From the NCBI GenBank assembly GCA_041666685.1, contig JBAYGJ010000001.1, forward strand, positions 31,749-95,748: 64,000 nt of DNA, written 5' to 3'. A program made the position numbers and the translations under genes. This document shows, piece by piece, positions 500-32,288 of this stretch. The DNA comes from Patescibacteria group bacterium (GTDB taxonomy: Bacteria; Patescibacteriota; Patescibacteriia; UBA10025; JAHIVO01). The notes under the pieces are model-generated. The model searched no databases. It was not told the DNA's origin and saw only the letters and a list, made by a program, of their open reading frames with translations. Numbering within the stretch: the first letter of the stretch is position 1; each line of letters begins with the position of its first letter.

Positions 500-1042
500 T
501 TATATTGCCCGCTCGACCACCTTTGTTGATACCGGCCTCTTGGACATTGCATACTTCACAAGTTCATACACCCCGAAAAATACCGAAACATAGAAAATGT
601 CACCAAAAAACGTATTCCGGTAAAACGGCACAGCCATCACATAACTCTGTACCAAACCAGCCAATGTTTTGCTGTACAGCGGCGTAAATGCCCATACGGC
701 AAAATTCGTTATGGCATAAAACAATACCGATCCTGCGATCGTGCCTGCCGCGATCCGTCCGACATGCTTGTTTCGACGCACCCACCAACCGATCATGCCA
801 AAAAAGAAGTAACTTCCCCAGGTGAATAATACAAGGTTATGCCAACCGATGATCGAATCGCTCACGACCATGGCAACAAGGGGTATGACCACGCCCCAGC
901 GGGAGCGGACGTACGTTCCGCAAAACAGGGCCAGTGCGCCCATCGGGATAAAATTATACGGGTGCGGAACCAGGCGCATGAGTACCGTCAGCATCACAAA
1001 AACCAATACAGCCAGACTGACAAACCACCGATTGTTTTTCAT
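500..1042 (-). CDS. Multi-pass membrane protein, probable ECF-type vitamin transporter S-component (CbrT-like cobalamin uptake)
   Basis: 180 aa with about 5-6 hydrophobic helices. It sits immediately downstream of a DUF4430 gene (the known CbrT/DUF4430 pairing) and a cobalamin adenosyltransferase. The call comes from context and topology, not from a motif. Confidence 0.4.
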   Translation of the reverse strand: MKNNRWFVSLAVLVFVMLTVLMRLVPHPYNFIPMGALALFCGTYVRSRWGVVIPLVAMVVSDSIIGWHNLVLFTWGSYFFFGMIGWWVRRNKHVGRIAAGTIAGSVLFYAITNFAVWAFTPLYSKTLAGLVQSYVMAVPFYRNTFFGDIFYVSVFFGVYELVKYAMSKRPVSTKVVERAI

Positions 1043-1062
1043 ATATACTTTTTTATCTTTTA

Positions 1063-1572
1063 TTAAAACAGACTGGTTTGAAATTTAAATTCGATGGCAT
1101 CTCCGGGCTGGACAATCTGCCTGTCTACGGCCATGGTGGCTGCTTGGCCGTCGATATAAAACGACCAATACTTGTTATCCTGCCCACCCTTCAGATCCCC
1201 GATGGCATTGACCAGTGTACCCATCTCACCATAATCCTTTGTGTCCAATACCAAGCCGTATATCTGCGCCGCCTGCTTGAGCGCATCAAGCGCCGTACCG
1301 CCAGTCGGTACGCTCAAATCAACACTGACTGAATTACCGCTGCTGCGTGCGATGGTGACTTTTACTTTCACCACCTCAACTCCAGCCACCCGGCCGGCAA
1401 TCGCATTGTGATTACCAACGGCGACTTGGATGTTATTGGTATGGGAGTCCTGGATGGCGATTGCCCGATCAGTCGAATAACTTGAAATAGCCAAAGCAGT
1501 AAGCAATATGACGGCAAAACTTACGACTGCGCTGGCAAACCACCAATGGAACTCCTCCTTATTGTTTTTCAT
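1063..1572 (-). CDS. DUF4430 (transcobalamin-like) domain protein, membrane-anchored
   Basis: There is an N-terminal TM helix. The C-terminal domain carries the YWSFYIDG...GDAIEFKF signature typical of DUF4430 proteins, which are encoded next to cobalamin ECF transporters. Confidence 0.6.
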   Translation of the reverse strand: MKNNKEEFHWWFASAVVSFAVILLTALAISSYSTDRAIAIQDSHTNNIQVAVGNHNAIAGRVAGVEVVKVKVTIARSSGNSVSVDLSVPTGGTALDALKQAAQIYGLVLDTKDYGEMGTLVNAIGDLKGGQDNKYWSFYIDGQAATMAVDRQIVQPGDAIEFKFQTSLF

Positions 1573-1586
1573 AGTATGGCAATTAC

Positions 1587-2132
1587 TTAATAATCTATGG
1601 ACGGCCTGGCGAGTATTCCTTTGGTAAACGGATGCTTGACCATTTGTATATCCGAGACATAATCGGCCAATTGTATTATCTTAGCTGGTGCCTGCCGTCC
1701 TGTCAAAACCAATTCCACATGAGCCGGTTTTCCCTTGATCAAACTCATAACTGACTGTGCGGTTACTAGCCTCTCCTTAATTGCCACATGTATCTCGTCC
1801 AAAATGACAACACCATACCGACCGGATTGTACAGACCGTCTAGCCACTCGTAATGCGCGTTGGGCTGCCTGCTGATGAACACGTAACGGTTTCCGATCAC
1901 CTAATATTTTAACAAACCCCTCGCCGAGTGCCAGGATTTCGAGAAATGGTGCAAGTTTCTTTACGATATCAAGTTCGCCAGAACGCCACGGGCCCTTAAT
2001 GAACTGCACCATCAGCACTTTTTTTCGATAACTGATGGCGCGCAACGCCAAGCCAAGGGCGGCTGTGGTTTTCCCCTTGCCATTGCCCGTATAGACATGC
2101 ACCAAGCCTCTGTCTATCTTTTTAAATTTCAT
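1587..2132 (-). CDS. cobO: cob(I)yrinic acid a,c-diamide / cob(I)alamin adenosyltransferase (CobA/CobO/BtuR family)
   Basis: P-loop-like HVYTGNGKGKTTAALGLALRA. The size (181 aa) and sequence fit the CobA/BtuR family. It is adjacent to the AdoCbl-dependent RNR. Confidence 0.75.
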   Translation of the reverse strand: MKFKKIDRGLVHVYTGNGKGKTTAALGLALRAISYRKKVLMVQFIKGPWRSGELDIVKKLAPFLEILALGEGFVKILGDRKPLRVHQQAAQRALRVARRSVQSGRYGVVILDEIHVAIKERLVTAQSVMSLIKGKPAHVELVLTGRQAPAKIIQLADYVSDIQMVKHPFTKGILARPSIDY

Positions 2133-2147
2133 ATCATCTCAACTATA

Positions 2148-4448
2148 TTATCCGAGACTACAAGCAGAAAACCCGCATTTAGGACACACCGAGCATCCCT
2201 CTTTGATCTCCATGTTCGTCTTGCATTCTGGGCACGTTTCGATCACATGGCTTCGGCGGGCAGCGCTTGCGACCGGGACTTTGACCGACTCACTCGATGT
2301 TTTCACGGTCGGTATAGTTACTGCGCCACTGCGGAGGTCTTCATAATTATAGCTGAATGATTTTTTCGATTCCTTGTGCTTGACTGAGCCGATGTTCAGT
2401 ACCTGTACGTCACGCGATCGGTCCCGGTAAATAGTCACGCCTTTGCATCCTTGCCGGTAAGCCAGCATATACACCTCTTCAACATCCTCAACTTTTGCGT
2501 CATTCGGAAAATTAACCGTTTTGGAAACTGCATTATCAGTAAACTTTTGGAACACGGACTGCATTTTCAGATGCCACTCCGGTGTAATGTCATGGGAAAC
2601 CACAAACAGTCTCTGCCATTTGGCCGGCACTTCATCCATGCCCTGGACTCCGCCATGTTCGGCGATTTTCTTCATAAGTTCTTCAGTAAAAAATCCTTCA
2701 CGGCGGGCAATATATTCAAATAACGGGTTCACTTCAATGAGCTCATTATCATCCATGACATTGCGGATGTACGAGATGGCGAACAGCGGCTCAATTCCAG
2801 ACGAACATCCGGCGATGATGCTGATGGTGCCAGTCGGTGCGATGGTATTGGTCGTTGAATTACGCATCTTCGGCGCACCCGGTTTGTCGAAAATACTCCC
2901 TTCAAAATTCGGAAACTGTCCGCGGTCCTGCGCCAAATCCTGAGACATTATCTTTGATTCATCGGCAATAAATTTCATTATTTTCTCGCCTAATTCCACC
3001 GCTTCCCGGCTGTCATACGGTACGCCCAGCATGATCAATACATCGGCCCATCCCATCAGGCCAAGGCCAATCTTCCTGTTGTCATGCACCATATTGGTAA
3101 TCTGCGGCAGCGGATAGTGGCTCATATCAATGACATTATCCAGAAAATGAATGGCCGTGCGTATGGTCGTGCGCATCTTGTCCCAATCAATCTCCACAGT
3201 TTCACCGACTGAAAAATCACCTTTGACCATCTTGGCCAAATTCAATGAACCGAGATTGCATGCCTCAAATGGCAGTAATGGCTGCTCGCCACATGGATTC
3301 GTGGCTTCCATTTCGCCGACTTTGGGCGTGGGATTATCGTGGTTAATCCGGTCGATAAAAACAATGCCCGGATCCCCATTTTTCCAGGCCAACGTGACAA
3401 TCAGGTCAAATACCTTGCGTGCATTCAACCGGTCCACGACCGTCTTGTCCTTGGGGTTCAACAGGTCGTAGTCAGTGTTCTGTTCGACGGCTTTCATAAA
3501 ATCTTCAGTCACGGCTACGGAAATGTTAAAATTATTCAAACGGTCATTATTCTCCTTGGCGGTAATGAATTCTAAAATATCCGGATGGTCGACCCGCAAA
3601 ATACCCATATTCGCCCCTCGACGGGTGCCACCCTGTTTAATGGTCTCAGTCGCCGCATCAAACACGGTCATGAACGATACCGGTCCTGAGGCCACGCCTT
3701 TCGTTGACATGACGCGGTCGTTTTTTGGGCGGAGCCGCGAAAACGAAAATCCGGTTCCACCGCCTGTTTTATGCACCAAAGCGGTCCATTTCACCGCATC
3801 AAAAATCTCCTCCATGGAATCACCGACCGGCAACACGAAACAGGCCGCCAGCTGCTGAAGTTCCTTGCCCGCATTCATCAATGTCGGGGAATTCGGGACA
3901 AACTCCAGCCGAGAAAGGACCTGATAAAATTCATCCTCAGTTTTTACCAAATCAATTTTCTGGTTCAAAAGCGAATCATACCGGGCGTCAGCTTGGGCGA
4001 TATTGGCGGCTACGCGGCGGAACATCTGAGGCGGTGTTTCAATGACCTTGCCGTTTGGATCCTTGCGCAGATACCGCTTGGAGAGCACGCGCAATGAATT
4101 CACAGACAGATTCGTATCCAGTTCAGGTAGGCCCAAATACGATCCCTTGGCGGCGCGGATCTTCTGGTGCTCTTTTCGATATAAAATATAAGCTTTCGCT
4201 AATTGGATTTGTTTTTCCTTGATCAGGACTTCTTCAACAATATCCTGAATCTGCTCGACTGTCGGGACCGTTGTGCTGTCGTACTTTTTCTCGAGGACGC
4301 CGACCACCTTTTTGCATAGCTTCTCGGCCAGCTTCTGGTCCTCCTGCTGGATGGATACCGTCGCTTTGTAAATTGCGTTTGTGATCTTTTCCAAGTCAAA
4401 CTCCACGACGACGCCCGAACGTTTACGTATCTTGTTTATTTTTACCAT
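2148..4448 (-). CDS. nrdJ: Ribonucleoside-diphosphate/triphosphate reductase class II (adenosylcobalamin-dependent), with N-terminal ATP-cone and C-terminal Zn ribbon
   Basis: 766 aa. It has an N-terminal ATP-cone (VVEFDLEKITNAIYKA). The catalytic core is class II RNR-like (NPCGEQPL..., GLMGWADVL). The C-terminus is CPECKTN...CSVCPKCG. Confidence 0.85.
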   Translation of the reverse strand: MVKINKIRKRSGVVVEFDLEKITNAIYKATVSIQQEDQKLAEKLCKKVVGVLEKKYDSTTVPTVEQIQDIVEEVLIKEKQIQLAKAYILYRKEHQKIRAAKGSYLGLPELDTNLSVNSLRVLSKRYLRKDPNGKVIETPPQMFRRVAANIAQADARYDSLLNQKIDLVKTEDEFYQVLSRLEFVPNSPTLMNAGKELQQLAACFVLPVGDSMEEIFDAVKWTALVHKTGGGTGFSFSRLRPKNDRVMSTKGVASGPVSFMTVFDAATETIKQGGTRRGANMGILRVDHPDILEFITAKENNDRLNNFNISVAVTEDFMKAVEQNTDYDLLNPKDKTVVDRLNARKVFDLIVTLAWKNGDPGIVFIDRINHDNPTPKVGEMEATNPCGEQPLLPFEACNLGSLNLAKMVKGDFSVGETVEIDWDKMRTTIRTAIHFLDNVIDMSHYPLPQITNMVHDNRKIGLGLMGWADVLIMLGVPYDSREAVELGEKIMKFIADESKIMSQDLAQDRGQFPNFEGSIFDKPGAPKMRNSTTNTIAPTGTISIIAGCSSGIEPLFAISYIRNVMDDNELIEVNPLFEYIARREGFFTEELMKKIAEHGGVQGMDEVPAKWQRLFVVSHDITPEWHLKMQSVFQKFTDNAVSKTVNFPNDAKVEDVEEVYMLAYRQGCKGVTIYRDRSRDVQVLNIGSVKHKESKKSFSYNYEDLRSGAVTIPTVKTSSESVKVPVASAARRSHVIETCPECKTNMEIKEGCSVCPKCGFSACSLG

Positions 4449-4466
4449 ACTATTATCAATTAGTAT

Positions 4467-4937
4467 TTATTTTCTTTTCGTTCTCCGATTGCTGATCAGC
4501 TTACGGAGCTCATGTTGGAATGTTTGCGCGTCCTTGAACGACCGATAGACCGAGGCGAAACGGATATACGCAACCTCATCCTTCTTTTTCAGGTGCTTCA
4601 TGATTATTTCACCGATCTGGCTGCTTTTGATCTCCTCTCGGCCGACCATCTGGATGTCTCGTTCGACTTGGCTTACTAGCCGCTTGAATTCGTCCTGGGT
4701 AATAGGACGCTTTTCGAATGATTTTTTTAAACCGGACTCTAGCTTGTCTTTGGCATACGGCTCCCGATGCCCATCACGCTTGATGACGGTAACATTCAGT
4801 ATTTCCGCTTCCTCATAGGTAGAGAAACGAAAGCCGCAGCGCAGGCACCGGCGGCGTCGCCGAATGGCCATGGCGTCATTAACCAGGCGGGAATCACTTA
4901 CTTTAGTGTCCGCATAATGGCAAGCTGGGCATTTCAT
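4467..4937 (-). CDS. nrdR: Transcriptional repressor NrdR
   Basis: MKCPACHYADTKVSDSRLV...CLRCGFRFSTYE Zn ribbon followed by an ATP-cone. It is 156 aa and sits directly upstream of nrdJ. Confidence 0.9.
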   Translation of the reverse strand: MKCPACHYADTKVSDSRLVNDAMAIRRRRRCLRCGFRFSTYEEAEILNVTVIKRDGHREPYAKDKLESGLKKSFEKRPITQDEFKRLVSQVERDIQMVGREEIKSSQIGEIIMKHLKKKDEVAYIRFASVYRSFKDAQTFQHELRKLISNRRTKRK

Positions 4938-5159: not shown

Positions 5160-6359
5160 CTACATCATTTTCTTGCGGATAAAAGCCGGTATCTCCAAAT
5201 CATCCTCTTCTGAAATTGTCGGTTCTTTCTTTGGCAACGACGGAACCGGCGGTGGAGTATATGCGGGTCTTTGTTCCGGCACTGATTTTATTTTATTGGA
5301 CGAAAATATCGTTTTTGGCTCCTCACGCTCCACCATGCCGCCAAAACTGATCGGTTTTATCTTTTTCAGGGACTTTTGCTTCCCCCCAAATCCAGTGGCA
5401 ATGACGGTAATCTTTATTTGGTCCTTCATCGCTTCATCGATCACAGCACCAAATATGACACGGGCATTCGGGTCGCCGGACGCAGTAATGATCCGTGCCG
5501 CCTCATTGACTTCATACATACCCAGATCAGGTCCGCCGGTTACAGTGAACAAGATACCCTTAGCCCCTTCTATGGACAACTCAAGCAGCGGACTGTCAAC
5601 TGCGGCTTTGGCCGCGTCGATGGCCCGATTTTCACCGGACCCCTGCCCGATTCCCATCAATGCCGAGCCGGCGCTTTCCATGATGGAACGCACATCGGCA
5701 AAATCAACGTTGATTAGTCCGGGAACGGTAATCAGGTCTGAAATCCCCTGCACACCCTGGCGTAACACTTCATCAACTGTCCCAAACGCATCAAGCAATG
5801 AGGTCTTTTTATCGATGATCTGAAGAATGCGGTCATTCGGGATGGTAATGATCGTATCGACTTTTTCCGTCAATTCCGCCAAGCCAGCTTCAGCGATGCT
5901 TTTCCGCTGTGCCCCCTCAAATGAGAACGGTTTTGTCACGACAGCGACCGTCAAAGCCCCGACATCCTTGGCAATATCCGCAATCAGAGGCGAGGCGCCA
6001 GTCCCCGTTCCGCCGCCCATGCCGCATGTGATGAAAATCATATCCGAACCTTTCAGCAGGTCATGAATCCCGTCCTGGTCCTCCTCTGCAGCCTTCCTCC
6101 CGATCTCAGAATCCATGCCAGCCCCCAAACCGCGCGTCGTGGTCTTGCCGATATGGAGCTTATGGGGGGCTTTTGAATGGTGCAGGGCCTGCGCATCAGT
6201 ATTGATGGCAATAAACTCGACACCACGTATCTTGGTGCTGATCATGCGGTCTATCGCCGCACCGCCGGAACCGCCTACGCCAACGACTTTTATCTTGGCA
6301 AACGTCTCAATGTCAGGTTTAATTTCCATAGTATTCCGATTAGAATTGTAATTTTTCAT
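5160..6359 (-). CDS. ftsZ: Cell division GTPase FtsZ
   Basis: [13 protein letters not shown] and the GGGTGTG tubulin signature. GGGAGGGGG lies 8 nt upstream of the ATG. Confidence 0.95.
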
Positions 6360-6380: not shown

Positions 6381-7634
6381 TTACGGCATTAATGATTTAA
6401 ACCATTGCTTCATTTTTGACGTCACTTCCTTGGCAGATGAGAAATTCGGCAATTTAAACCCGCGGCCACTGCTGTCTTTGTCCGATAAACCGGCGCCCCA
6501 ATAGAGGAGCCCGATCGCCGTGGAGTAATTTACGTCATTAACTTTATCAACGGCCGTCGAAGCCAAATCCAGTGGATATCCGAGCGAGGCAGGCAGTTTG
6601 AATTCCCGTTTCGCCACCTCGATCAATCCGGGCAGCTTGGCGCCACCGCCTGTAATAATAACTCCGGCCGGCAGTAATCCGGCCCGATCGATTTTCTGCA
6701 ACTCCTTATCGGCCATTTTGAAAATTTCCTCAGTCCGGGCTTCGATAATCTCCGCAATATGGCGCCGTGATACCACGCCTTCTTCGCGTGAATCAATTTC
6801 TCCGAGGTTAATCTCCTCACGTTTATTTATTTCGTCGGGGACAGCGTTGCCATATTCAATTTTAATCTTTTCAGCCAAATCTATCGATGTTCGCAAACCG
6901 ATGGCGATGTCATTCGTCACATGACTAGACCCGACCGGCAAAATTGCCGTATGCAACACATCGCCTTCCTCAAAAACCAGCAGACTGGTTGTTGATCCGC
7001 CGATATTCAACAGCGCTACACCCAAATCACGCTGCTTTTTTGTCAGGACGGACTCGGCAGAGGCCAAAACACCGAGGACAAGATCATTGATATCGATACC
7101 AGTACGGTAAATGCATTTAGTAATGTTTTTTACTTGAGAAGACAGCCCCTGGATTATCTGGGCGTCAACCTCTAGCCGAATTCCGGTCATACCGACCGGG
7201 TCCTTGATCCCTTTTTGGTTATCAACCGTAAAGCTCCTCGGGATGACATGGAGAATCTCATAATTTGGCGGTGTCGCAACTGCCTGCGCCGCTTCAATTA
7301 CCCGCTCAACATCCTCCTCACGGATCTCACCGTCGGATTTTGATACCGCGATGACCCCATGGCTTTCCTGGGCAGTAATATGGCTGCCATTGATGCCCAC
7401 ATAGGCGTGTTCAACTGGAATACCGGTCATACGCTCAACCTTTTCAAGGGTCGCCGAGATGGAGGAGACGGCGTCTTCGATACTGGTAATCGCACCTTTG
7501 CTCACCCCTTCAGCCGGATGCTCTGCAGCACCCAACACATGAATTTTATTGTCATGCGGATTGACCTGCCCGACCACGATACGGATGGTAGTAGAGCCAA
7601 TATCAAGACCAGTTATGATTTCTTCTTTAGCCAT
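6381..7634 (-). CDS. ftsA: Cell division protein FtsA
   Basis: Actin-like ATPase (GLDIGSTTIRIVVG). The ATG at 7634 (MAKEEIITGLDIG) matches canonical FtsA N-termini. The ORF track gives a longer GTG-start version reaching 7664. Confidence 0.88.
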   Translation of the reverse strand: MAKEEIITGLDIGSTTIRIVVGQVNPHDNKIHVLGAAEHPAEGVSKGAITSIEDAVSSISATLEKVERMTGIPVEHAYVGINGSHITAQESHGVIAVSKSDGEIREEDVERVIEAAQAVATPPNYEILHVIPRSFTVDNQKGIKDPVGMTGIRLEVDAQIIQGLSSQVKNITKCIYRTGIDINDLVLGVLASAESVLTKKQRDLGVALLNIGGSTTSLLVFEEGDVLHTAILPVGSSHVTNDIAIGLRTSIDLAEKIKIEYGNAVPDEINKREEINLGEIDSREEGVVSRRHIAEIIEARTEEIFKMADKELQKIDRAGLLPAGVIITGGGAKLPGLIEVAKREFKLPASLGYPLDLASTAVDKVNDVNYSTAIGLLYWGAGLSDKDSSGRGFKLPNFSSAKEVTSKMKQWFKSLMP

Positions 7635-7795
7635 ATATTTTTTTAACGGAATCCCTATGCGCACTCCAGTTAACCGTCTGTCTGAGCAGCCGTAGAGTGC
7701 GGTTCATTTACCCATATTATAAAGGATTTATATGTAATATGCAAAAGGTCCATTAACACGCGTATTTTTACCAATTTTGGCCTGGTTCTGGAACA

Positions 7796-8164
7796 CTACC
7801 AGGAAACAAAATAAGGCACAAAAATAAGCAAACCGATAACAACCGCCCCGATCGAGGCTACCAGAACTGCGGCAGCCATCACATCCTTGATCACCTCAAC
7901 ATACATATGTATCCGGGGGCTGAGGATGTCGGCGACTTTCTCAAAAATCGTATTGATCAGTTCCAAAGCCAGAACAAACATCATAATCATAAGCAAAATT
8001 ATCGCCTGCCAAAGCGCTACCTCAAAATAGATCATGAAAATGATGACGATCAGGCTGGCCAGGAGGTGCAGGCGGATGTTCTGTTCATTTTTCAGGGCAT
8101 ACCAAAAGCCACGGCCGGCATAACGGAAGCTTTTAATGAGTTTGCGAAAATCAATTAGCGGCAT
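7796..8164 (-). CDS. dgkA: Diacylglycerol kinase / undecaprenol kinase (DgkA family)
   Basis: 122 aa with 3 TM helices. ELINTIFEKVAD and VIKDVMAAAVL align with E. coli DgkA ELLNSAIE / AKDMGSAAVL. Confidence 0.8.
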   Translation of the reverse strand: MPLIDFRKLIKSFRYAGRGFWYALKNEQNIRLHLLASLIVIIFMIYFEVALWQAIILLMIMMFVLALELINTIFEKVADILSPRIHMYVEVIKDVMAAAVLVASIGAVVIGLLIFVPYFVSW

Positions 8165-8183: not shown

Positions 8184-8627
8184 TTAGTTGTTCGACAGAT
8201 ACGCGCGCAAAATGCGTTTTTCTAGGCGTTGCATTTTTACCGCAGCCGCATTTCTTATATGGTCATGACCAATCAAATGGAGCCACCCATGAATAAGCAA
8301 AATAATAACTTCTTCCCTGAATGAATGGAGTAATCGTTTTGCCTGCCGCCTCGTATATGGTACCGCAATGACGATTTCACCTACATACCCGGTGGAAATC
8401 ATTTCGGCTTTCTTCACGTCCAATTCTGAAAACGAAAGTACATCAGTGGGACGATCAATGTGCCGGTACTGGCGGTTTAAGCGACGACTGACCGCATCGC
8501 TGACAAAAGCGACCGACACCTCAGCATGGCGATACTGAGGATCCTCTTTGGCGGCCACTGCCATGACACGTTTCACCAGCTTCTCATGGACGCCCGACGC
8601 ATAAAGTTGGTTAACCAGGACCCGCAT
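8184..8627 (-). CDS. ybeY: rRNA maturation endoribonuclease YbeY
   Basis: TDVLSF and the HGWLHLIGHDH metal-binding motif. The start overlaps the upstream stop (ATGA). Confidence 0.85.
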   Translation of the reverse strand: MRVLVNQLYASGVHEKLVKRVMAVAAKEDPQYRHAEVSVAFVSDAVSRRLNRQYRHIDRPTDVLSFSELDVKKAEMISTGYVGEIVIAVPYTRRQAKRLLHSFREEVIILLIHGWLHLIGHDHIRNAAAVKMQRLEKRILRAYLSNN

Positions 8628-9784
8628 TAGAGCCGATTGGTTGCGGAATTCAAATTGCTGTTTGTATTTGATGTATTGGTGTTATGGTTCGCGTTGATAT
8701 TGGTATTGGTATTTGTGTTCGTATTCCGATTTGTATTTATGTTGGTTGCCGTATTGGTATTCACCGGCACTACCCCGATCCTGAAACTGCGGTACATCGC
8801 CTGAAATACCGTTTTGTAATTTGCCTGAGCCAGAATATTAATGTTGTAATTAATAAGGTACACTCTGCTCCCGCTGACGAAATATGCCGTGAGTCCATCA
8901 ACGCTCAAAACTCCGGACAAAGTTTTATCCCAATTTGTAACACTCATAATTTTTGACGAGTCGATACCAGGCGACTGGGTGAGGTACCAGTCACGTGCGG
9001 ATAGCCCGGCGGGGTTCTCCTGCACGCTCACCTCGACAAACTCGCCGCTGGCCGTGAACATTTTCCCGCGGGTATTCTGTGGATCGTCTGATAACGCCCA
9101 ACTCGCAGGGTACAGTGTCGAATACCCGTATACACTGTCATAATACGTTTTTATGGCCGCATTTGCCTCGATTTTACCCGTCCCAGCCGGATTGTATCCC
9201 CCGCCGACCTCCAGGCCATCAGAATAACTGTCCCCATCCGTATCGGCTTTATTCGGGTTGGTGCTAAAAATCGTTTCCTCTACGTCAGTCAAACCGTCAC
9301 TGTCGCTGTCCTGGCTGGACACCACTGGAGTTATATTGGTATTTACCGACGTATTTGTGTTATTCACATTAAAAACTGGGAATAAATTCGTATTGCCGGA
9401 CATGTTCGCATTACTGTTCCCGTTGGTGTTTTTATTCGTATTGCCGGACATGTTCGCATTACTGTTCCCGTTGGTGTTTTTATTCGTATTCGAATTAGCA
9501 TTCTGGTTTCCGGCGATATTGCTGTTTGCGTTTTGGTTCGTGACAACGATATTTTGATTAGCATTCGTATTAGCTGATGGACCGAATTTTTTATAGGCAA
9601 AATAACCGGCCACCCCCAGAATCAGTACCACCACAATAATGATCAGCCACAAAAACAATCGGGAGCCGCCACCCGACGAACCGTGATCGTCAATGTGAAA
9701 CTTGGCCGGCATCGTGTACATCTTTACCGGTTTATTGGACATTTGGGAATTGGCAGTTGGAAGTGGCGGTGTTTCAAATGGCAT
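8627..9784 (-). CDS. Single-pass membrane-anchored surface protein with N/T-rich low-complexity regions, thrombospondin-type-3-like Ca-binding repeats and a C-terminal globular domain
   Basis: TM helix LFLWLIIIVVVLILGVAGYFAY. There are (N-x-N) repeats including a perfect 16-aa duplication. DSDSDGLTDVEE and DTDGDSYSDGLE are DxDxDG Ca-binding motifs. There is a GGGYNPAGTGK motif, and the NTNTN tail runs to the C-terminus. Confidence 0.5.
   Translation of the reverse strand: MPFETPPLPTANSQMSNKPVKMYTMPAKFHIDDHGSSGGGSRLFLWLIIIVVVLILGVAGYFAYKKFGPSANTNANQNIVVTNQNANSNIAGNQNANSNTNKNTNGNSNANMSGNTNKNTNGNSNANMSGNTNLFPVFNVNNTNTSVNTNITPVVSSQDSDSDGLTDVEETIFSTNPNKADTDGDSYSDGLEVGGGYNPAGTGKIEANAAIKTYYDSVYGYSTLYPASWALSDDPQNTRGKMFTASGEFVEVSVQENPAGLSARDWYLTQSPGIDSSKIMSVTNWDKTLSGVLSVDGLTAYFVSGSRVYLINYNINILAQANYKTVFQAMYRSFRIGVVPVNTNTATNINTNRNTNTNTNTNINANHNTNTSNTNSNLNSATNRL
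9385..9480. repeat. Perfect 2 x 48-bp tandem repeat inside the 8627..9784 CDS, encoding NKNTNGNSNANMSGNT twice
   Basis: The unit attcgtattgccggacatgttcgcattactgttcccgttggtgttttt occurs twice back-to-back with no mismatch. A degenerate third unit follows. Confidence 0.8.
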
Positions 9785-9796
9785 AGATAGAAATCC

Positions 9797-10438
9797 TTAT
9801 TGGTTCGTATTAGATAGCGTGTTTGTTAAATCATACAATTTCCCGGGGCCGACAGGACTGTACCCATTCTGGACTTCGACACCGTCATCCTTGGCGTCTC
9901 CGTCCGTATCTTTTTTCAACGGATCTGATTTATATACCTTTACTTCTTCCCGGTCAAAAAGTCCGTCGCCGTCAGAGTCAGCTTTCTGCACATCAGTACT
10001 GAGAGATTTTTCCTCTGTATCAGCTAGACCGTCGCCGTCAGTATCAATCAAAGCAGAATTTACCGCGGAAATATTTACCACAACCGGTACGGCATCACTA
10101 TTAACCCCCTGAACCGAATTAGTATTAGTCGTTACCGTATTCGTAGTTTCTTTTGTAAACAATCCGCTCCGCCATGCAGCCATCGCGCCAGCCGCACACA
10201 GTACGACTAACAGCGCTACCCCGGCAATCATGAACCGGCGATTTCCAAAAAACATGCCCCCCGAAGTGCCCGAAACCGCGCCATCCTCCCGCGCGACTGA
10301 TAGGGGCACCACTGGCGATTTAAGTACCGCCGGCCGAACAGCCCGCTTCTTACCCGACGCCGTAACTGCCTTTTTAGCTGCAGCACGGTCTGTTTCCTCA
10401 AAAATATCTTCAACATTTTGTTTCTGGTTTTTCGCCAT
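9797..10438 (-). CDS. Single-pass membrane-anchored surface protein with thrombospondin-type-3-like Ca-binding repeats (paralogous architecture to the 8627..9784 gene)
   Basis: Likely start MAKNQKQ. The ORF track extends it to 10483, overlapping the upstream gene. The TM helix is FMIAGVALLVVLCAAGAMAAW. DTDGDGLADTEE, DSDGDGLFDREE and DTDGDAKDDGVE are DxDxDG motifs. The protein ends with GYSPVGPGK. Confidence 0.5.
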   Translation of the reverse strand: MAKNQKQNVEDIFEETDRAAAKKAVTASGKKRAVRPAVLKSPVVPLSVAREDGAVSGTSGGMFFGNRRFMIAGVALLVVLCAAGAMAAWRSGLFTKETTNTVTTNTNSVQGVNSDAVPVVVNISAVNSALIDTDGDGLADTEEKSLSTDVQKADSDGDGLFDREEVKVYKSDPLKKDTDGDAKDDGVEVQNGYSPVGPGKLYDLTNTLSNTNQ

Positions 10439-10445
10439 ACAACTA

Positions 10446-12056
10446 TTATAATGCTGGTGAAGAGGTATCCTGCGCGATGTCAATCTGACACGAACAGTTC
10501 TGGCCAGTCACTGTCGTCACATTAATCGTTGTAATTGCGCTCGTGGTCGAAGACGTCGCATCATACGCAACTGCATACAACCCTTTCGGCGTTGTCGAAA
10601 TGATATCCGTACATACTTCATGCGTTCCTGTGGGGCAATCAAGTGCCGACAATTCAACTGCCCGGGCGGTTTTCACGAACGGTAGCCGCAGGCCAGACTT
10701 CACCATGGCATATGACTTAATCGGGCTTTGAAGGAAAGTCACCTGACTGACATTGAGAGTACCGGTGAATGTTACAGCTGGCGTTGAGGCGACCGTAGAA
10801 GCGAGAGGTCCGCCCCCACCGCTGCTAAATAGATCAACTTTTGTAAGCGCAACATCGTCGGTGGCAGAGATGCTGTAACTCAATGTGCCGGTGCTGGTAT
10901 AGTATGCGCCATTTGTGGGCTGGTTGATGGTCACCGTCGGGGCGCTTGGTGGTACAGTGACGTTGACTGTCCGTGTCGCCGTAGTAGTCAGTGATGCGCC
11001 ATTGTAGGCGATTGCTTTCAAGGTATGACTACCATTGGTGAGCGACCCCACGTTCAACACCCACGTATAATTATGGCTTCCTAACGGCTGGTCATAAATC
11101 TGGGTATCGCGCGGCATTGATTCCAAATCAAGGTAAAATTCTACTTTTATGATGGCGCTTTCGGGATCCGTCGCATTTGCCACCACAGAATAACTGGCCG
11201 TCGACAGCACAGTCCCATCAGTCGCCGGAGCAGTTATGGAAACCTCCGGTGCAGTTGTATCAGGCGTGGTATTGCTCACCGTAACAGTCACTGCCGTAGA
11301 GGTAGTCGAATTCCCTGCCGCATCCCTGGCGACCGCAGTGAGTGCGTGTGACCCAGATGCGGTTGCGGTCGTATCCCAGCTAACAGAATATGGCGCTGAA
11401 GCATCTTCCGCTCCAAGGTTTAAATTATCGATCTTGAATTGCACTCCGCTCACACCGACAGTGTCAGCCGCAGTTGCATTTATTGAAGTAGTCCCAGTGA
11501 CGCTTGCGCCGTTAGTCGGTACGGTGATTGAAACGGTAGGGGCAGTGGTATCGGAAGTAGTCGTATTGATATTAAAGTTGGCATTACTATTGCCCGTCCC
11601 GACTGTAATAGTCGCGGCCGCAGTTGATACAGTCGGATGACCCAGGGCATCTGCCAGTTGAATATCCACCAGATAGAGCCCATTCCCATTAGCTCCGGTA
11701 TTCCACGTGTTGGCATATACATCATCGCCCGCGGTACCGTCGCTGTGCTTACCGTCATCATACAGCTGTATGATGGCGATAGTCCCTCCGTTATCGCGCC
11801 GGATATTTGCCGTGGCCACACTGATGCCCGAAACGTCAGTGGTTTTTACTGAAATGACCACTGACCCCCCCAGTGCCACTGACGCAGGAGTGGCTGTCGT
11901 GCTTTCCAATGTCGGACCGGCTGTGGCGCCTGCGGTATTGCTGTATACTTCCCCGCTGGGCGTATTGGCCGCGCGGACAAATGTGATCCCCGCGACAGCA
12001 AATATTCCCGCCGCAAAAAGAATTATTAATAATTGTGAAATCTTTTTCATAATCAT
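10446..12056 (-). CDS. Secreted cell-surface protein with multiple bacterial Ig-like (Big-type) domains
   Basis: Signal peptide MIMKKISQLLIILFAAGIFAVAGITFVRA. It has repeated Ig-like modules (VSITVPTNGASVTGTTSINATAADTVGVSGVQFKIDN...HALTAVARDAAGNSTTS). This is the same domain type as the repeats in the giant protein upstream. Confidence 0.6.
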   Translation of the reverse strand: MIMKKISQLLIILFAAGIFAVAGITFVRAANTPSGEVYSNTAGATAGPTLESTTATPASVALGGSVVISVKTTDVSGISVATANIRRDNGGTIAIIQLYDDGKHSDGTAGDDVYANTWNTGANGNGLYLVDIQLADALGHPTVSTAAATITVGTGNSNANFNINTTTSDTTAPTVSITVPTNGASVTGTTSINATAADTVGVSGVQFKIDNLNLGAEDASAPYSVSWDTTATASGSHALTAVARDAAGNSTTSTAVTVTVSNTTPDTTAPEVSITAPATDGTVLSTASYSVVANATDPESAIIKVEFYLDLESMPRDTQIYDQPLGSHNYTWVLNVGSLTNGSHTLKAIAYNGASLTTTATRTVNVTVPPSAPTVTINQPTNGAYYTSTGTLSYSISATDDVALTKVDLFSSGGGGPLASTVASTPAVTFTGTLNVSQVTFLQSPIKSYAMVKSGLRLPFVKTARAVELSALDCPTGTHEVCTDIISTTPKGLYAVAYDATSSTTSAITTINVTTVTGQNCSCQIDIAQDTSSPAL

Positions 12057-15000: not shown

Positions 15001-18000
15001 TCCGGAGCAACAATATTTTCCAGATCCTGCGGTCCGGCATTATTTCCGAAAATAAAGATTTTCCTGGAAAGGTTGGTATCAAGAGCGGAAATGACATTCC
15101 CGGCGTTTTCCGTCACATACACCGTCGATCCGTCAACATGTATCCCGTCAGGGACGTTTAATTGGTTGGGACCATTGCCGTTTATGCCGGTGCCAAAAAC
15201 GGCGCCAGGCACCAGATTTAGGTTGGAGTCCAATTTGAACACCTGGCCGGTGTTCCGTTTGCTGACATACACGTTACCGGCGCTGTCTGTATCGATTCCG
15301 TTCACGCCGTCACTCCCAAAATCATAGTGATGCTCGATGGTATTTGTCACCGGATCGAAAATAACGACTGTCTGGAAATAAATAATTGCTGCAATTTTCC
15401 CGTCCGGGCGTCCGACGGAATGAGTTACGCCAAACTGCGGCAACGCCCCGCCGGTTTCATCCACAGCCCCGAGGTTATAGACCGCCTTTGGCGCCTGGAG
15501 AGGCGTCATGCTCGGATCAAACCTCAAAACCCGCCGGGTGCCCACAGGTGCCGGAGTATACGTTACCAACAGGTCGCCGTTTGAGTGATCCAGGCCGACA
15601 TGCCATGCTATCTGTGAAGAGGGCGATAATCCCAACGCATCAAAATCAAAAGTTCCTAAATCCACGCAACTATCCAGATTGCTGTTGCACCGGCGGAGAT
15701 GCGCCGGATCTTCCCAATAGGTCACATAATAAATATATCCATTGTTAGAAGCCTCAAGGCTATGAATGCCCGCAGTATCCACAGCCTTGTCCGGCAAAAA
15801 CGATATGGTACGGTTGGAAACGGTATCCCCGTCTTTTGGCGATGTAATGGTGACAAACGGATTGGTTGTATCCGGCTGGCCGCTATTGTCGATGCGAACC
15901 GCATATTCCTTGTCCGTCTGATTATCCGCATTATCAAACGCCCGGACCCGGACCGTATGGGCGCCGTCGGAGAACCTAGTTGTATTGAAATCCCAGCTCC
16001 AGATGGCGCTGTCCGTATCAGTAAACGTACGGATACCGTCAACATAATACTCTACCCGGTTTACGCCTGACCCAACGTCTGTCACCGTCGCATTCAGGAC
16101 ACGGGTTCCGCTCACCGCGGTTACGGCATTCTCAACCAGCAAATCGACATCCCCGATGACCGGGCCGACATGGTCAGCAGCTGAACCAGTGACATTATAT
16201 TCATAGTTAAAACACGGACACTGCGCTTCAGTCATACCGACACATTTATCTACTACCGGATCGGCGACCAGATACCACTCCCAATTACCCTCTGCATTAA
16301 CCAATAAATGAACATTTTCCAAATGAGCAAGCAGACTGGCCCGGCTGCCCGTGGCATTGCCCAAATATTGGTAGACAAACGAACCGCCCGGACACTGGTA
16401 TGTTTTTAGCGTTTCATTCCAGCAGGTATTCTGGTCATAGCCCGTGCCGCACAATGTCGGCGGATCCTCCACGATAAACTTATCGTACGGATCGCCCGGC
16501 AAATTGCCGCCGAGTGCCGCCCCAAGCGTCTCCTGCCAGGACGGCCATTTGGACGTGGAAAGCATCTTGACGTATGATCCGCCCTCAAGTTTCGGGAAGT
16601 AACCATTATCGGTGCGGTAGATCATCAGTTTCTCGTAGATGGACGACAGGTCATTGATCCGCCGCATATCGCGCTGGACCTGCTCCTTTTCGGTCTGTGT
16701 GATGTTGATGCTGAATTCCCAATTCTCAATCATCCGGTTGTAGATGCTGACTGTTTCGTCAGACGCGCCCTCGTTATATGAAATCAAATATATATTCGGA
16801 TACAGCCGGCCGAGATTGCCTGGATTCCAGGCGGCGACATACACGCTCCGTCCGGCCCGTACTGCGGCGTACCCATCCACTGTCAGATCCTGGGGTTGTG
16901 GCGCAGCCGGTCCAAACTGGCCATAGTACCAATCGTGGGGCGACTGGTTGCTTTCGTTCTCGTAGACCCGGATGCCGATAGCGTCGTCCGTATCCGCACG
17001 GGTGAAGAAAAATTCCCTGATCAGCTCGTTTTTCTTGTTGCCGAATTGATAGCTCCCCGCTTTGACAATCACGTCGCCAGTCGGCGCCAGTGATGGCAAG
17101 GCGCCGGGATCACGGCAGTACGAGATAGAAAAATTCGTGACAGTATCAGTATATGGGAACGTGTCTGCCGGCACAGAGAAGGGGTTCGGCCACGGGTGTT
17201 CGCACACATTGACCGTCACTCGAGCAGAAGATGTTTTTGTACCGGTGAAGAATTCCGGATCAAATGAGGCATTGACCGTCGTCCGGCCGTTCTTGTTCTG
17301 GGCCGTCAGCCATCTGGAAAAATCCCCCAATGGAGTCAGTTGGGCGATCGACGTATCGCCAATTGAAAAAGTAGCCGTCGAATTGACGGGATTATTATTT
17401 TTATCATATGGTATCGCCTCCACTATATGTTGGTTGCCATTAACAGCACCCAAGTCGTCACTGCAATCTGTCGGTGCGGTACACGTAAATATATCAGGTG
17501 GGTTATAAAATGGGGTATCAGCATTTACGAAAGTCCAGATAACGTGGTCAATCTGACAGATGGACGCCAACGGATCCACATCCCATTCAAATAACCGCCA
17601 GTTGTCCACAATGTTTGTCCAGGTGATGCCCCGCTCACTTTTTATAATATCGGTGCGCAAATTAATATCTATCGCCGTGCCAACATGCAGGGCCACAGTC
17701 GGCGAAACAATGAATCCGTTGATGATTTTCTTAACTGTAAACGCAACTGGCGCAAGGTTTTCGGTCAGGGTGACAGAGTCACCAACGACGACCGAAGTCA
17801 TGTCAATATCCTGGTCAAACTTGATGATAAACGAGTTATTCAAACAGATGAGCGGCGAGTCCGGCGGAACCACGTCAGGCTTGATGGAGACAAACTGCGG
17901 CCGGGCATAACAACAAGTACTCTTGCCGCACGCGATCGTCCCGGTCCCGTCCTCATCGCACTGGGCATCGCCGGTCGCGGTATCCTCATAATCACACCCG

Positions 18001-22448: not shown

Positions 22449-22898
22449 TTAGGAAGTACCCAACGTTTCCTTGACGATCTTGCTGACAGTCTGGCCGTCG
22501 GACCGGCCGGCCACTTTCACCATGACGGCTTTCATGACCTGGCCAAAATTTTTCTCATGCTCGCCGGTAGCGGCCACGATTTCCTGCACGATCTTCCGAA
22601 TCTCATCACTGGCCATCTGCTGAGGCAAATACCCCTCAATAATTTTCAATTCCTTATTTTCTTTATCAGCCAATTCCGGCCGGCCACCCGCGACAAACGC
22701 CACTGACGCTTCCCGGCGTTGTTTCGCCTGTGCTTGGAGGACCTTTACCACATCCGTTTCCGGCAGCTCCTTAACCCGTTTCGCAATGGCCACATTATGG
22801 ATGGCGCTCATCAACATACGAAGCGTGGTCACGCTAAATTCGTCATGCTCGCGCATGGCTTTTTTAACAGCTTCCGAAATGTTCGACTCGGTCGACAT
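22449..22898 (-). CDS. GatB/YqeY domain protein
   Basis: 149 aa. The full length matches the YqeY family (…VLQAQAKQRREASVAFVAGGRPELADKENKELKIIEGYLP…). Confidence 0.8.
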   Translation of the reverse strand: MSTESNISEAVKKAMREHDEFSVTTLRMLMSAIHNVAIAKRVKELPETDVVKVLQAQAKQRREASVAFVAGGRPELADKENKELKIIEGYLPQQMASDEIRKIVQEIVAATGEHEKNFGQVMKAVMVKVAGRSDGQTVSKIVKETLGTS

Positions 22899-22910
22899 GT
22901 AAAAAATATA

Positions 22911-23195
22911 TTATCTGACCCGAGCTTGCAGCAGTTTTTTTATGGTACCGCGTTTGTTCGGTCGTTTTGGATCAATAAAATCGTCAAGTTTCCCGATCTT
23001 ACGCAGAAACTCCTTTTTCTCGACGATTAGCTTCCGCCTGGACGCGTCTTCACGCATTTCCAGTTTGGTTTTTTTTGATGTGTAAAAACGGCCGCGTTTA
23101 GCCCGCAACAGGACTCCACTCGCTTGCACTTTTTTCGTGAAACGCCTCAATAAGCTTTCTGGCGACTCACCTTCTTTTCTTCTGACTTCTACCAC
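22911..23195 (-). CDS. rpsU: 30S ribosomal protein S21
   Basis: …VEVRRKEGESPESLLRRFTKKVQASGVLLRAKRGRFYTS resembles the S21 consensus. It uses a GTG start, with GGAGGTG 10 nt upstream. Confidence 0.8.
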   Translation of the reverse strand: MVEVRRKEGESPESLLRRFTKKVQASGVLLRAKRGRFYTSKKTKLEMREDASRRKLIVEKKEFLRKIGKLDDFIDPKRPNKRGTIKKLLQARVR

Positions 23196-23392
23196 GTGAT
23201 TATTTCACCTCCCCAATAATGTTGCCTGCCCAGGCAATTTACTGATTAATAATTTCGGGCGTGTATTAGTATATGATACCTAAATAATATGAAAAAATCT
23301 AGTCCTAATATAACACATAAAACAGCCTTTTGTCAAAATAGGCTTTGTCAGCATTCCACTGATTGCGGCCAAATATCGTTTTAGCGCTAAGG

Positions 23393-23731
23393 TTACGTTA
23401 AACCTGATAATTTCTTGCCACCTAACATATGAATATGTAAGTGAGGGACCACCTGACCTCCGTCAGGCCCACAGTTCACAACCAATTTATATCCATTTTG
23501 TAGACTGTGGATTTTTGCCAGCTCCCTAGCCTGTAACACCATATCGCCTACCAGCTGCTGATGGCGCTTTGCCAACTCATCGACAGACGGAATATGTTCC
23601 TTGGTGATGATGAGCAGATGGACCGGCGCCTGCGGCGAGATGTCCTTGATAACGATAAAACCCTCCGACTCATAGATCAACTCAGTCGGAATATCTTTGC
23701 GGATAATCTTGCAAAAAATACAATCTGGCAT
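23393..23731 (-). CDS. HIT-family (histidine triad) nucleotide hydrolase/transferase
   Basis: It has the histidine triad motif HLHIHML and the HINT-like N-terminus CIFCKII. Confidence 0.85.
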   Translation of the reverse strand: MPDCIFCKIIRKDIPTELIYESEGFIVIKDISPQAPVHLLIITKEHIPSVDELAKRHQQLVGDMVLQARELAKIHSLQNGYKLVVNCGPDGGQVVPHLHIHMLGGKKLSGLT

Positions 23732-23737
23732 AGACGC

Positions 23738-25132: not shown

Positions 25133-25139
25133 AGTATTA

Positions 25140-25799
25140 TTATATAGATAAATTGTATATGGGACTGACGAAATGCTGGAATTCAGAAAACGGATAGACC
25201 CGCAGCCAGGCCCGGCCGACGATATCTTTTCTGGGTAACGGCCCAAAGATGCGGGAATCCAGGCTGACCGGACGGTTGTCGCCCATAACGAAATATTGAC
25301 CATCCGGAATCCGTGTCACTGTTAAATTATTGGTAAGGGTGCCCTCAGCCAAATACGGTTCCGGAAGCACGACGCCATCCGGATATTGCTTATTGATAAT
25401 AGTAATCTCCCCATTAACGGATTTGATCGTTTCGCCCGGCAGTCCAATAATCCGCTTAATAAAAAATTCACTGGTCCGGTTCGGATTGCGCATCACCAGG
25501 ACGTCTCCCCGCTGCGGATCAGTGAATCGGTAGGTGATTTCATCGATGATCAGGTATTCATTATCGTGAAAATTCGGCTCCATCGAGGCGCCGCGGACAT
25601 AAAACGGCTGAAACAAAAAATACCGGACCGGGATGATGATAGCGAGGGCGATCAGGACGATCTTGACCAGTTCAAGAACAAAACTGCGAGGAGAATTGGC
25701 AAATGACGGAGGATTCAGCTTAACATCCCTCTGTTCCTGCTTAACCTCTGCTTTGGCTTTCTTATTGTCGATATCGTAGTCGCTTACCGTCAGTCTCAT
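25140..25799 (-). CDS. lepB: Signal peptidase I
   Basis: N-terminal TM helix. Catalytic Ser box GASMEPN, Lys box and the GDNRPVSLDSR box. Confidence 0.85.
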   Translation of the reverse strand: MRLTVSDYDIDNKKAKAEVKQEQRDVKLNPPSFANSPRSFVLELVKIVLIALAIIIPVRYFLFQPFYVRGASMEPNFHDNEYLIIDEITYRFTDPQRGDVLVMRNPNRTSEFFIKRIIGLPGETIKSVNGEITIINKQYPDGVVLPEPYLAEGTLTNNLTVTRIPDGQYFVMGDNRPVSLDSRIFGPLPRKDIVGRAWLRVYPFSEFQHFVSPIYNLSI

Positions 25800-25809
25800 A
25801 TATTAGGTT

Positions 25810-32281: not shown

Positions 32282-32288
32282 AAAACAT

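Follow-up and report, generated by a model that had tools for sequence, protein, structure and literature searches.

The window analysed here, a stretch of 64,000 nucleotides (nt) from a Patescibacteria group bacterium (GenBank assembly GCA_041666685.1, contig JBAYGJ010000001.1, positions 31,749 to 95,748), is core chromosome of an ABY1-like Patescibacteria genome. This study dealt with two adjacent genes in it, which encode proteins of 213 and 385 amino acids (aa), each with one transmembrane (TM) helix and several thrombospondin type 3 (TSP3) repeats. They belonged to a minus-strand gene run in the order rpsU, yqeY, a giant gene, the genes of the 536-, 213- and 385-aa proteins, ybeY, dgkA, ftsA, ftsZ, and nrdR (Table 1). 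In the ABY1-type lineages sampled, the two TSP3 genes were a strongly conserved, uncharacterised pair between the giant gene and the cell-division genes. The initial annotation had proposed the 536-, 213- and 385-aa open reading frames (ORFs) as a co-oriented trio of surface proteins downstream of the giant gene. All three were real, with strand and coordinates unchanged, their extracytoplasmic (surface) nature was supported, and the downstream genes ybeY, dgkA, ftsA, and ftsZ were confirmed by Pfam. From the giant gene to the 385-aa gene, successive genes were 33, 7, and 12 nt apart; the stop of the 385-aa gene overlapped the start of ybeY by 1 nt, and ybeY appeared to be translationally coupled to the 385-aa gene.

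Table 1. Genes and features of the locus (window positions; AF2, AlphaFold2; pLDDT, predicted local distance difference test; TRF, Tandem Repeats Finder; N/T, asparagine/threonine)
Feature	Position	Strand	Basis or remark
rpsU	22911-23195	-	Pfam; upstream boundary of the conserved block, with yqeY
yqeY	22449-22898	-	Pfam; upstream boundary of the conserved block, with rpsU
Giant surface protein gene, 3442 aa	12090..22418	-	Pfam domains
Secreted Big_7 Ig-repeat protein gene, 536 aa	10446..12056	-	Pfam Big_7 x3
Small bitopic TM+TSP3 protein gene, 213 aa	9797..10438	-	Pfam TSP3_bac, AF2
Large bitopic TM + stalk + TSP3 + PsbP-like protein gene, 385 aa	8627..9784	-	AF2, Foldseek
ybeY	8184..8627	-	PF02130, E=3e-34
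dgkA	7796..8164	-	PF01219, E=2.6e-28
ftsA	6381..7664	-	Pfam FtsA and SHS2; likely true start is the ATG at 7634
ftsZ	5160..6359	-	Pfam Tubulin and FtsZ_C; canonical C-terminal peptide in translation
213-aa protein: cytoplasmic VEDIF motif	10400..10414	-	Homologue alignment
213-aa protein: TM helix, residues 67-90	10169..10240	-	AF2 (model m25036012c711)
213-aa protein: three TSP3 repeats + GYSPVGPGKL cap, residues 130-201	9836..10051	-	AF2
385-aa protein: cytoplasmic YTMPAKF motif, (T/V)MPxxF/Y	9698..9718	-	Family conservation
385-aa protein: TM helix, residues 41-67	9584..9664	-	AF2
385-aa protein: N/T-rich disordered stalk, about residues 68-155	9320..9583	-	pLDDT below 50 (AF2)
385-aa protein: perfect 48-bp tandem repeat in stalk, 2.2 copies	9386..9490	.	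TRF, 100% matches
385-aa protein: two TSP3 repeats + GYNPAGTGK cap, residues 156-205	9170..9319	-	pLDDT above 90
385-aa protein: PsbP/Mog1-fold C-terminal domain, residues 206-338	8771..9169	-	Foldseek
385-aa protein: N/T-rich low-complexity C-terminal tail, residues 339-385	8630..8770	-	pLDDT 41-53
Best sigma-70-like promoter match	23307..23336	-	Upstream of rpsU; TTGACA-18-TATATT with TG, 11/12

The 213-aa protein had more than 400 homologues. An identical protein was present in one Patescibacteria metagenome-assembled genome (MAG), and the closest database matches were Patescibacteria MAGs. The ATG at 10438 was backed as its start by the N-termini of orthologues. The protein matched PF18884 (TSP3_bac) with 34.8 bits (cut-off 25, E=1.4e-8) over two stretches. 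In the AF2 model its TSP3 block (residues 130–200) was compact, with a pLDDT of 94–96; across 40 homologues the D/E/G ladder of this block was invariant, and the cap residues G192, P195, G197, G199, and L201 were conserved. In the cytoplasmic tail, E10, D11, and F13 were invariant and I12 was at least 90% conserved in the same 40 homologues. The tail motif of this small family took the form (V/P)EDIF(A/E), which was also seen in syntenic orthologues, and VEDIF occurred once in the six-frame translation of the window.

The 385-aa protein had more than 500 homologues. Its AF2 model (maf8d57b83dde, made with family alignments) comprised a disordered tail, the TM helix, a disordered stalk, a folded part, and a disordered N/T tail; the folded part, residues 150–340, was one confidently folded unit with a pLDDT above 90. 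The tail motif of this large family, (I/V)(H/Y)TMPxxF/Y, stood ~15 residues ahead of the TM helix. M25, P26, and F29 were at least 90% conserved in an alignment of 68 homologues, and the TMPxxF-type motif was present in 205 members of the family and unique in the six frames of the window. The same 68 homologues showed invariant acidic positions in the TSP3 block (D159, D161, D163, E169, E170, D181, D183, D185, D189, and E192) and conserved cap residues G196 and P199, the latter invariant. Scanned alone, the block scored 21.9 bits against PF18884, just under the gathering cut-off of 25, and many orthologues carry a precomputed PF18884 match. Two matches of the 385-aa protein, to RodZ (NCBIfam, E=0.0011) and to PFF1_TM (Pfam, E=0.0038), were far under the cut-offs and were rejected as artefacts of the TM helix and low complexity.

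The spacer between the TM helix and the TSP3 block ranged from 52 to 296 aa across the large family. In the window, the 48-bp repeat encoded a 16-aa unit of the N/T-rich stalk, and the C-terminal tail region held periodic repeats of 6, 12, and 24 bp. The copy at one sampled locus (L087), from the same population as the window, had a gap of 16 codons in the alignment of the 385-aa protein and was otherwise 100% identical. The gap has the size expected if L087 had one 48-bp unit fewer. This indicated that stalk length is polymorphic, whereas the rest of the block was identical at the amino-acid level.

The C-terminal domain of the 385-aa protein was recognised by structure. Foldseek against the Protein Data Bank (PDB) gave CyanoP 2lnj (E=4e-6), 2xb3 (1.2e-5), and 1v2b (8.6e-5), with a probability of 1.0, and further matches to BT_1490, Mycobacterium tuberculosis (Mtb) Apa, and Tsi3. 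A sequence profile of the protein against PDB sequences also found CyanoP 2xb3 (E=0.002). The Pfam PsbP model (PF01789) reached 16.3 bits against a cut-off of 23.5 (E=0.01) over 26 residues only, and no photosystem genes were seen among the window ORFs scanned with Pfam. With a superposable fold, a sub-threshold family match, and no photosystem genes, the domain was taken as a PsbP-like fold, not as an orthologue of PsbP. It formed a large family of its own, with 1000 representatives of 50%-identity clusters at E<=1e-3 and 345 at E<=1e-10, and reached the cut-off of no Pfam model. Among 124 representatives, 119 had the TSP3 motif, 104 a TM helix, and 97 the MPxxF motif.

The two proteins had a 52-residue module of TSP3 repeats and GYxPxGxGK cap in common (52% identity, E=1e-13). 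The DxDxDG repeat occurs three times in the 213-aa protein and twice in the 385-aa protein. When all six frames of the window were scanned for D.D.D[GN]..[DN], three matches came up, all within these two genes. The N-terminus MF(E/D)(D/N) was found in both families in many lineages, which supports an origin of the two families by duplication. Thus, several elements of the shared architecture that had been read from the sequence stood up: the DxDxDG repeats were real, given the TSP3_bac match and the invariant acidic ladder; the GY(N/S)PxGxGK motif was conserved in both families; each protein had a single predicted TM helix (residues 41–67 and 67–90 in the AF2 models); and paralogy was borne out by the common module and, often, by the common N-terminus. 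The N/T-rich stalk held for the 385-aa protein, but in the 213-aa protein the stalk was short and its N/T enrichment mild.

Lysine and arginine (K+R) were biased towards the N-terminal side of the predicted helix in both families. In the large family, K+R counts before and after the helix were 3.8 and 1.5, and 200 proteins had the bias against 9 with the reverse, which pointed to an N-in/C-out topology; in the small family the counts were 2.9 and 1.9 and the proteins 62 against 17, which likewise indicated N-in. Within the tails of both families the motifs were near-invariant while the surrounding sequence varied. The initial annotation had described short cytoplasmic tails; tails do exist, but they are more than that, since they carry the conserved motifs EDIF and TMPxxF.

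Gene order was compared across the contexts of five increasingly distant homologues and 80 loci from species-representative genomes, scored by phmmer with the window proteins; the counts given here cover the 47 loci that held the PsbP-like domain. These spanned the Kerfeld-, Magasanik-, Buchanan-, Falkow-, and Uhrbacteria. The order (rpsU-)yqeY, giant gene, small TM+TSP3 gene, TM+TSP3 gene with the C-terminal domain, ybeY, dgkA, ftsA, ftsZ was kept in ~90–97% of informative cases. In 41/43 loci the small TM+TSP3 gene immediately preceded the 385-type gene, and a same-strand giant ORF of at least 1000 aa lay upstream in 37/38; the giant proteins were often too divergent for phmmer, and a long ORF was still found at the same position. 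In 42/47 loci the gene directly 3′ of the 385-type gene was ybeY, and the two usually overlapped by 1 or 4 nt or were at most 6 nt apart. Downstream, ftsA was found in 42/46 loci and ftsZ in 40/42, and the upstream order of rpsU and yqeY was repeated in L004, L006, L013, L019, and L031. The link of the TSP3 proteins to the giant gene that had been suspected was therefore upheld by the giant ORF upstream in nearly every locus. The initial annotation had set against its own view the case of widespread housekeeping proteins whose synteny is unrelated to the giant gene. The homologues were indeed widespread and syntenic, but this synteny includes the giant gene.

Some loci departed from the usual order. 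In L025 and L040, ybeY-dgkA was replaced and the trio of giant, small TSP3, and 385-type genes was intact. The replacement in L040 consisted of clpP-secDF-Wzy/TPR-prepilin peptidase genes, and the trio stood ~7 kb upstream of ftsA-ftsZ; that in L025 consisted of reverse-transcriptase, ABC, and PLD genes plus secDF. At 10788-11999 of L025, a reverse-transcriptase gene (RVT_1) lay directly downstream of the 385-type gene and was followed by the ABC-type and PLD-type genes; it may represent a retron, group II intron, or defence insertion. L023 also departed from the usual gene order. The same locus in the distant L062, before ybeY-dgkA-ftsA-ftsZ, was occupied by a small pilin of 132 aa and one TM+TSP3 protein. 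Non-syntenic TSP3 loci with a pilin match were three only (L050, L062, and L083), a number too small, with no background rate at hand, to speak for a co-occurrence of TSP3 proteins and pilins.

The giant protein began with a VirB2-like T4SS_pilin two-helix membrane hairpin (residues 59–123, PF18895, E=3.7e-14), followed by Big_5, Big_7, and He_PIG modules and BNR/sortilin-like propeller modules in Pfam. The NCBIfam model for a pilin-like conjugal transfer protein was sub-threshold on it (37.1 bits against a cut-off of 40). The hairpin was present in every upstream giant gene whose N-terminus fell inside the sampled locus. A second region, residues ~1700–2040 (window 16300-17320, minus strand), was conserved in distant positional orthologues, with 100-residue bins over ~1700–2000 matched in 12–18 of 25 loci. 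This region holds 'RDMRRINDLSSIYEKLMIYRTDNGYFPKLEGG...LPGDPYDK', which resembles a type IV pilin or GspG-type head motif; it matched Pfam T2SSG at E=0.12 only, and a PDB sequence search gave no match. Hairpins of this VirB2-like type headed proteins of widely differing size, from 132 aa (L062) to 3442 aa (window). L050 had tandem arrays of eight pilins of ~116–194 aa, and L026, L041, and L046 had two consecutive large pilin-headed genes.

The 536-aa protein started with a signal-peptide-like N-terminus, MIMKKISQLLIILFAAGIFAVAGITFVRA|AN as read by eye, and contained three Big_7 domains (PF17957, E=3.8e-32, 111.2 bits against a cut-off of 24.1) and a choice-of-anchor X motif (NCBIfam, 27.3 bits). 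The claim that it has Big-type Ig modules in common with the giant protein was correct: the Big_7 modules of the two were 30–34% identical (E=2e-10). Its gene was found only in the closest relatives (L001, L007, L010, and L087–L089), and elsewhere the slot was taken by another small TSP3 gene or other small genes. The Big_7 protein is thus a clade-specific secreted accessory made of the Ig modules of the giant protein. The trio of the initial annotation was accordingly redrawn, for the conserved unit comprises the giant gene and the two TSP3 genes, and the Big_7 gene is clade-limited.

Rates of evolution were estimated by pairwise Nei-Gojobori comparison with L087, L088, and L089. L087 showed 0 amino-acid differences and one 16-codon indel, and without substitutions it was uninformative for the ratio of nonsynonymous to synonymous substitution rates (dN/dS). 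For L088 and L089, dS was above 1.3 and saturated, which leaves relative dN and rough ratios usable. Against these two congeners, dN was 0.02–0.05 for ftsA/ftsZ, 0.13–0.19 for the 385-aa protein, 0.27–0.36 for ybeY, 0.33–0.41 for the 213-aa protein, 0.33–0.37 for the giant protein, and 0.45–0.55 for Big_7. Gene-wide dN/dS, where dS was finite, was 0.14–0.19 (small TSP3, Big_7, and giant genes), and by dN the 385-aa protein evolved more slowly than YbeY. Both TSP3 genes are under gene-wide purifying selection. Because dS was saturated, the comparison excludes diversifying selection over the whole gene and leaves room for selection at individual sites. The variable parts of the locus are the Big_7 gene, the passenger region of the giant protein, and the stalk length.

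These results bear on the proposal of the initial annotation that the locus is a surface/adhesion island, with the paralogues possibly under diversifying selection; the island was taken here as horizontally acquired or variable. Such an island would agree with the fast evolution of the giant and Big_7 proteins (dN 0.33–0.55, against 0.02–0.05 for ftsA/ftsZ), with the changing set of genes that separates the giant gene from the small TSP3 gene, and with the stalk length polymorphism within a population. However, the surroundings of the block are core chromosome, with rpsU, yqeY, hisS, lepB, parAB, topA, mfd, and der, and its position inside housekeeping genes was fixed across the ABY1-type lineages sampled. 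Its GC content was ordinary (0.46–0.52, against 0.46–0.53 for the window), the nearest tRNA was at 26675, and the ORFs scanned with Pfam, a part of those in the window, included no mobility gene (integrase or transposase). Neither the low dN/dS, nor a 385-aa protein more conserved than YbeY, nor the invariance of functional residues and motifs fits diversification. Composition, gene content, and the conserved synteny in the 47 loci led us to reject a genomic island acquired by horizontal gene transfer. For the two TSP3 genes, the proposal was largely refuted on gene-wide evidence, and we regard it as highly improbable.

Strong purifying selection and class-wide conservation would also be expected of plain housekeeping parts. 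The pair could be calcium-dependent tethers between the membrane and the wall or S-layer, with no specific tie to the giant protein or to division, in the manner of the TSP3 linkers of the OmpA family. TSP3 repeats are typical linkers of peptidoglycan-associated OmpA proteins (Dai et al., 2017, as cited in passages of PMC12045341). Some search matches of the 213-aa protein carried PF00691, and the variable low-complexity spacer would suit a tether. But the Pfam and NCBIfam scans found no peptidoglycan-binding domain (OmpA_C, LysM, SPOR, or SLH) in either TSP3 protein, and simple tethers leave unexplained both the near-invariant cytoplasmic motifs and the near-obligate adjacency to a pilin-hairpin gene. 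We consider this explanation unlikely.

Another explanation starts from the position of the pair upstream of ftsA-ftsZ in at least 40 loci. The bitopic pair could be lineage-specific parts of division or envelope growth, analogues of FtsN, MapZ, FtsQ, or PilN, with the giant gene a mere neighbour. In that case the cytoplasmic peptides would bind FtsA or FtsZ, and the septal wall would be the target of the ectodomains. FtsN binds FtsA and PilN binds PilM via short N-terminal peptides, and the TSP3 proteins have the corresponding bitopic N-in topology and near-invariant short cytoplasmic motifs. There was no FtsQ-like gene directly before ftsA in the window, and in L040, without ybeY-dgkA, the trio still stood ~7 kb ahead of ftsA-ftsZ. 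On the other side, Pfam and NCBIfam found no POTRA, SPOR, or other divisome domain, the fold was PsbP-like and not FtsQ-like in Foldseek, and the motifs do not fit the consensus of the FtsZ C-terminal peptide, D-[IL]-P-x-F-[LIM]. The tightest linkage was with the giant gene, which was kept when ybeY-dgkA was lost, and ftsA had a promoter-like site of its own (7745-7716, consensus scan). A purely divisional role therefore seemed fairly unlikely. Membership in the FtsQ/DivIB or FtsN type was rejected, with no match to POTRA, the FtsQ beta domain, or SPOR and no FtsQ-type fold; only the bitopic topology and the neighbourhood fit.

Rearrangement left the linkage to the giant or pilin gene intact, and for this reason a surface module was ranked over a purely divisional or generic spacer role. 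We lean, with slightly better than even confidence, towards the pair as the conserved core of a lineage-wide envelope module, in which the two proteins would be N-in/C-out adaptors that work with the giant protein. The first part of this module would be the giant surface protein, which evolves fast and would be anchored in the membrane through its VirB2-like pilin hairpin. The second would be the small bitopic protein, with the EDIF motif, TM helix, spacer, three TSP3 repeats, and GYxPxGxGK cap. The third would be the larger paralogue, with the TMPxxF motif, TM helix, long disordered spacer, two TSP3 repeats and cap, PsbP-fold domain, and low-complexity tail. The disordered spacers would raise rigid, calcium-loaded TSP3 blocks well above the membrane and, in the larger protein, a PsbP-type protein-binding domain along with them. 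The raised ectodomains may then dock, in a calcium-dependent way, on the giant pilin-anchored protein or the surrounding wall, or organise it. Inside the cell, the invariant peptides would bind a cytoplasmic partner, for which neighbourhood and the analogy with FtsN-FtsA and PilN-PilM make FtsA and FtsZ the obvious candidates, and the pair would thus serve as trans-membrane adaptors. A more specific version, which we find distinctly doubtful, has the EDIF and TMPxxF peptides dock on FtsA, FtsZ, or another cytoskeletal partner while the ectodomains hold the giant protein, so that the division machinery would position or inherit the host-attachment organelle; this would make the pair a trans-envelope adaptor system not recognised before in CPR bacteria.

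Several points weigh against the envelope module. Loci entered the sample through their similarity to the 385-aa protein, and the sample consists of genomes that have it; genomes without it lie outside. A housekeeping arrangement passed down by descent could by itself account for the gene order, and contact with the giant protein or with FtsA/FtsZ is a prediction from that order. The genes ybeY and dgkA stand between the TSP3 pair and ftsA, which has its own promoter-like site. Calcium binding is predicted from motif and fold similarity, and the TSP3 block of the 385-aa protein scored under the Pfam cut-off (21.9 against 25 bits). Episodic or site-specific positive selection is still compatible with the saturated dS. 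The putative operon structure was built on short intergenic gaps and consensus scans; the site at 23307..23336 is, as a consensus match only, a candidate for the start of a long operon, and the overall count of promoter-like sites in the scan was no higher than in shuffles.

Parts of the putative module resemble known systems. The polymorphic surface receptor TraA of Myxococcus has as its partner TraB, a protein with TSP3 repeats (PMC12045341). The window proteins share with TraB, CglD, and MtsD the DxDxDG TSP3 repeats, the membrane anchor, and the pairing with a large polymorphic surface protein, either as gene neighbour or as partner. The TSP3 blocks gave local, sub-threshold matches to NCBIfam CglD (E=1.2e-8) and MtsD, and the full-length scores against families of this type were far under the cut-offs (33 against 400; 19–29 against 800). 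TraB, CglD, and MtsD belong to the outer membrane of diderms, as beta-barrel or lipoprotein components that contain OmpA-like or VWA domains, whereas the window pair has a single N-terminal TM helix in a presumed monoderm cell of the Candidate Phyla Radiation (CPR), a conserved cytoplasmic motif, and a PsbP-fold domain. No OmpA_C (PF00691) or barrel match was found in either protein in Pfam and NCBIfam, and the AF2 models showed a single TM helix; membership in the OmpA-family TSP3 proteins (TraB-type or Bacteroidota OmpA), which needs an N-terminal barrel together with OmpA_C at the C-terminus, was rejected.

The C-terminal domain of the 385-aa protein has the same alpha/beta sandwich as PsbP/CyanoP/Mog1 proteins (PsbP of photosystem II, BT_1490, M. 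tuberculosis Apa, and Tsi3; Foldseek E=4e-6 to 6e-4), which act as extracytoplasmic protein- or ligand-binding modules. Unlike PsbP, it is fused to a TM helix and TSP3 repeats, has only 11–19% identity, and belongs to its own large family. The TSP3 block of the 213-aa protein superposed on the B-domain of Staphylococcus aureus Bap (PDB 7c7u/7c7r) with a root-mean-square deviation of 0.9 Å over 43 columns and 51% identity (Foldseek). This region of Bap is calcium-binding. The match was local only (TM-score 0.07–0.2), and Bap, unlike a bitopic adaptor, is a giant adhesin anchored in the cell wall. By analogy, an N-in single pass, a short conserved peptide in a variable tail, an extracytoplasmic domain, and a place near ftsA/ftsZ would liken the pair to FtsN-FtsA, PilN-PilM, and MapZ-FtsZ; there is no relationship in sequence or fold to FtsN, PilN, or MapZ, and no SPOR, POTRA, or PilN-type domain.

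The hairpin that heads the giant protein is the one of the VirB2-like pilins of Patescibacteria (PF18895; PMC12102498), and the small pilin at L062 is of the same kind. Passages of PMC12102498 describe small pilins near virB4 and pilin arrays in Patescibacteria; in a term search of the paper the word 'giant' was absent, and the passages obtained name neither a pilin-giant fusion nor its TSP3 partners at the ybeY-ftsAZ locus. Within the library searched, no published description of these TSP3 families or of this locus was found. The window module is a conserved, uncharacterised CPR envelope module that combines known parts in a new way.

The upstream order lepB(x2)-hisS-HIT-rpsU-yqeY (22449-26448, minus strand) was also conserved, as in L004, L006, and L062. 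The window's rpsU-yqeY and ybeY-dgkA recall the Firmicutes neighbourhood rpsU-yqeY...ybeY-dgkA-era. With conserved housekeeping order on both sides, the surface module gives the impression of an insertion into an ancient run of housekeeping genes. At 25140-26448 (minus strand) there were two signal peptidase I (S26) genes in tandem; the first overlaps the annotated 5′ end of hisS, which indicated that the start of hisS is probably downstream of that of the longest ORF. Components of a type IV pilus are encoded in the vicinity as well, namely a PilT/T2SSE-type ATPase gene and pilM at 31208-33350 (plus strand), ~9 kb from the giant gene. At 500-4937 (minus strand), nrdR, the large subunit of an ATP-cone ribonucleotide reductase, cobO (corrinoid adenosyltransferase), DUF4430, and DUF6580 formed a cluster kept in close relatives, which suggests a B12-dependent reductase with its own genes for corrinoid handling or uptake. 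A 703-aa ORF at 42031-44142 (minus strand), beside parB-parA, had no Pfam match at E<=1e-4.

Little is known of how the ultra-small CPR/Patescibacteria, with their minimal gene set, construct a surface, attach to hosts, and divide, and most of their conserved envelope proteins carry only the annotation 'hypothetical'. The present analysis defined two large, strongly constrained families that combine a cytoplasmic peptide, a TM helix, a spacer, and calcium repeats, with a PsbP-fold domain in one of them. The pair are candidates for anchoring or organising the giant protein, for a calcium dependence of the CPR envelope, and for a possible link between surface and division. They would gain in interest should the cytoplasmic motifs turn out to link the surface apparatus to the division machinery.

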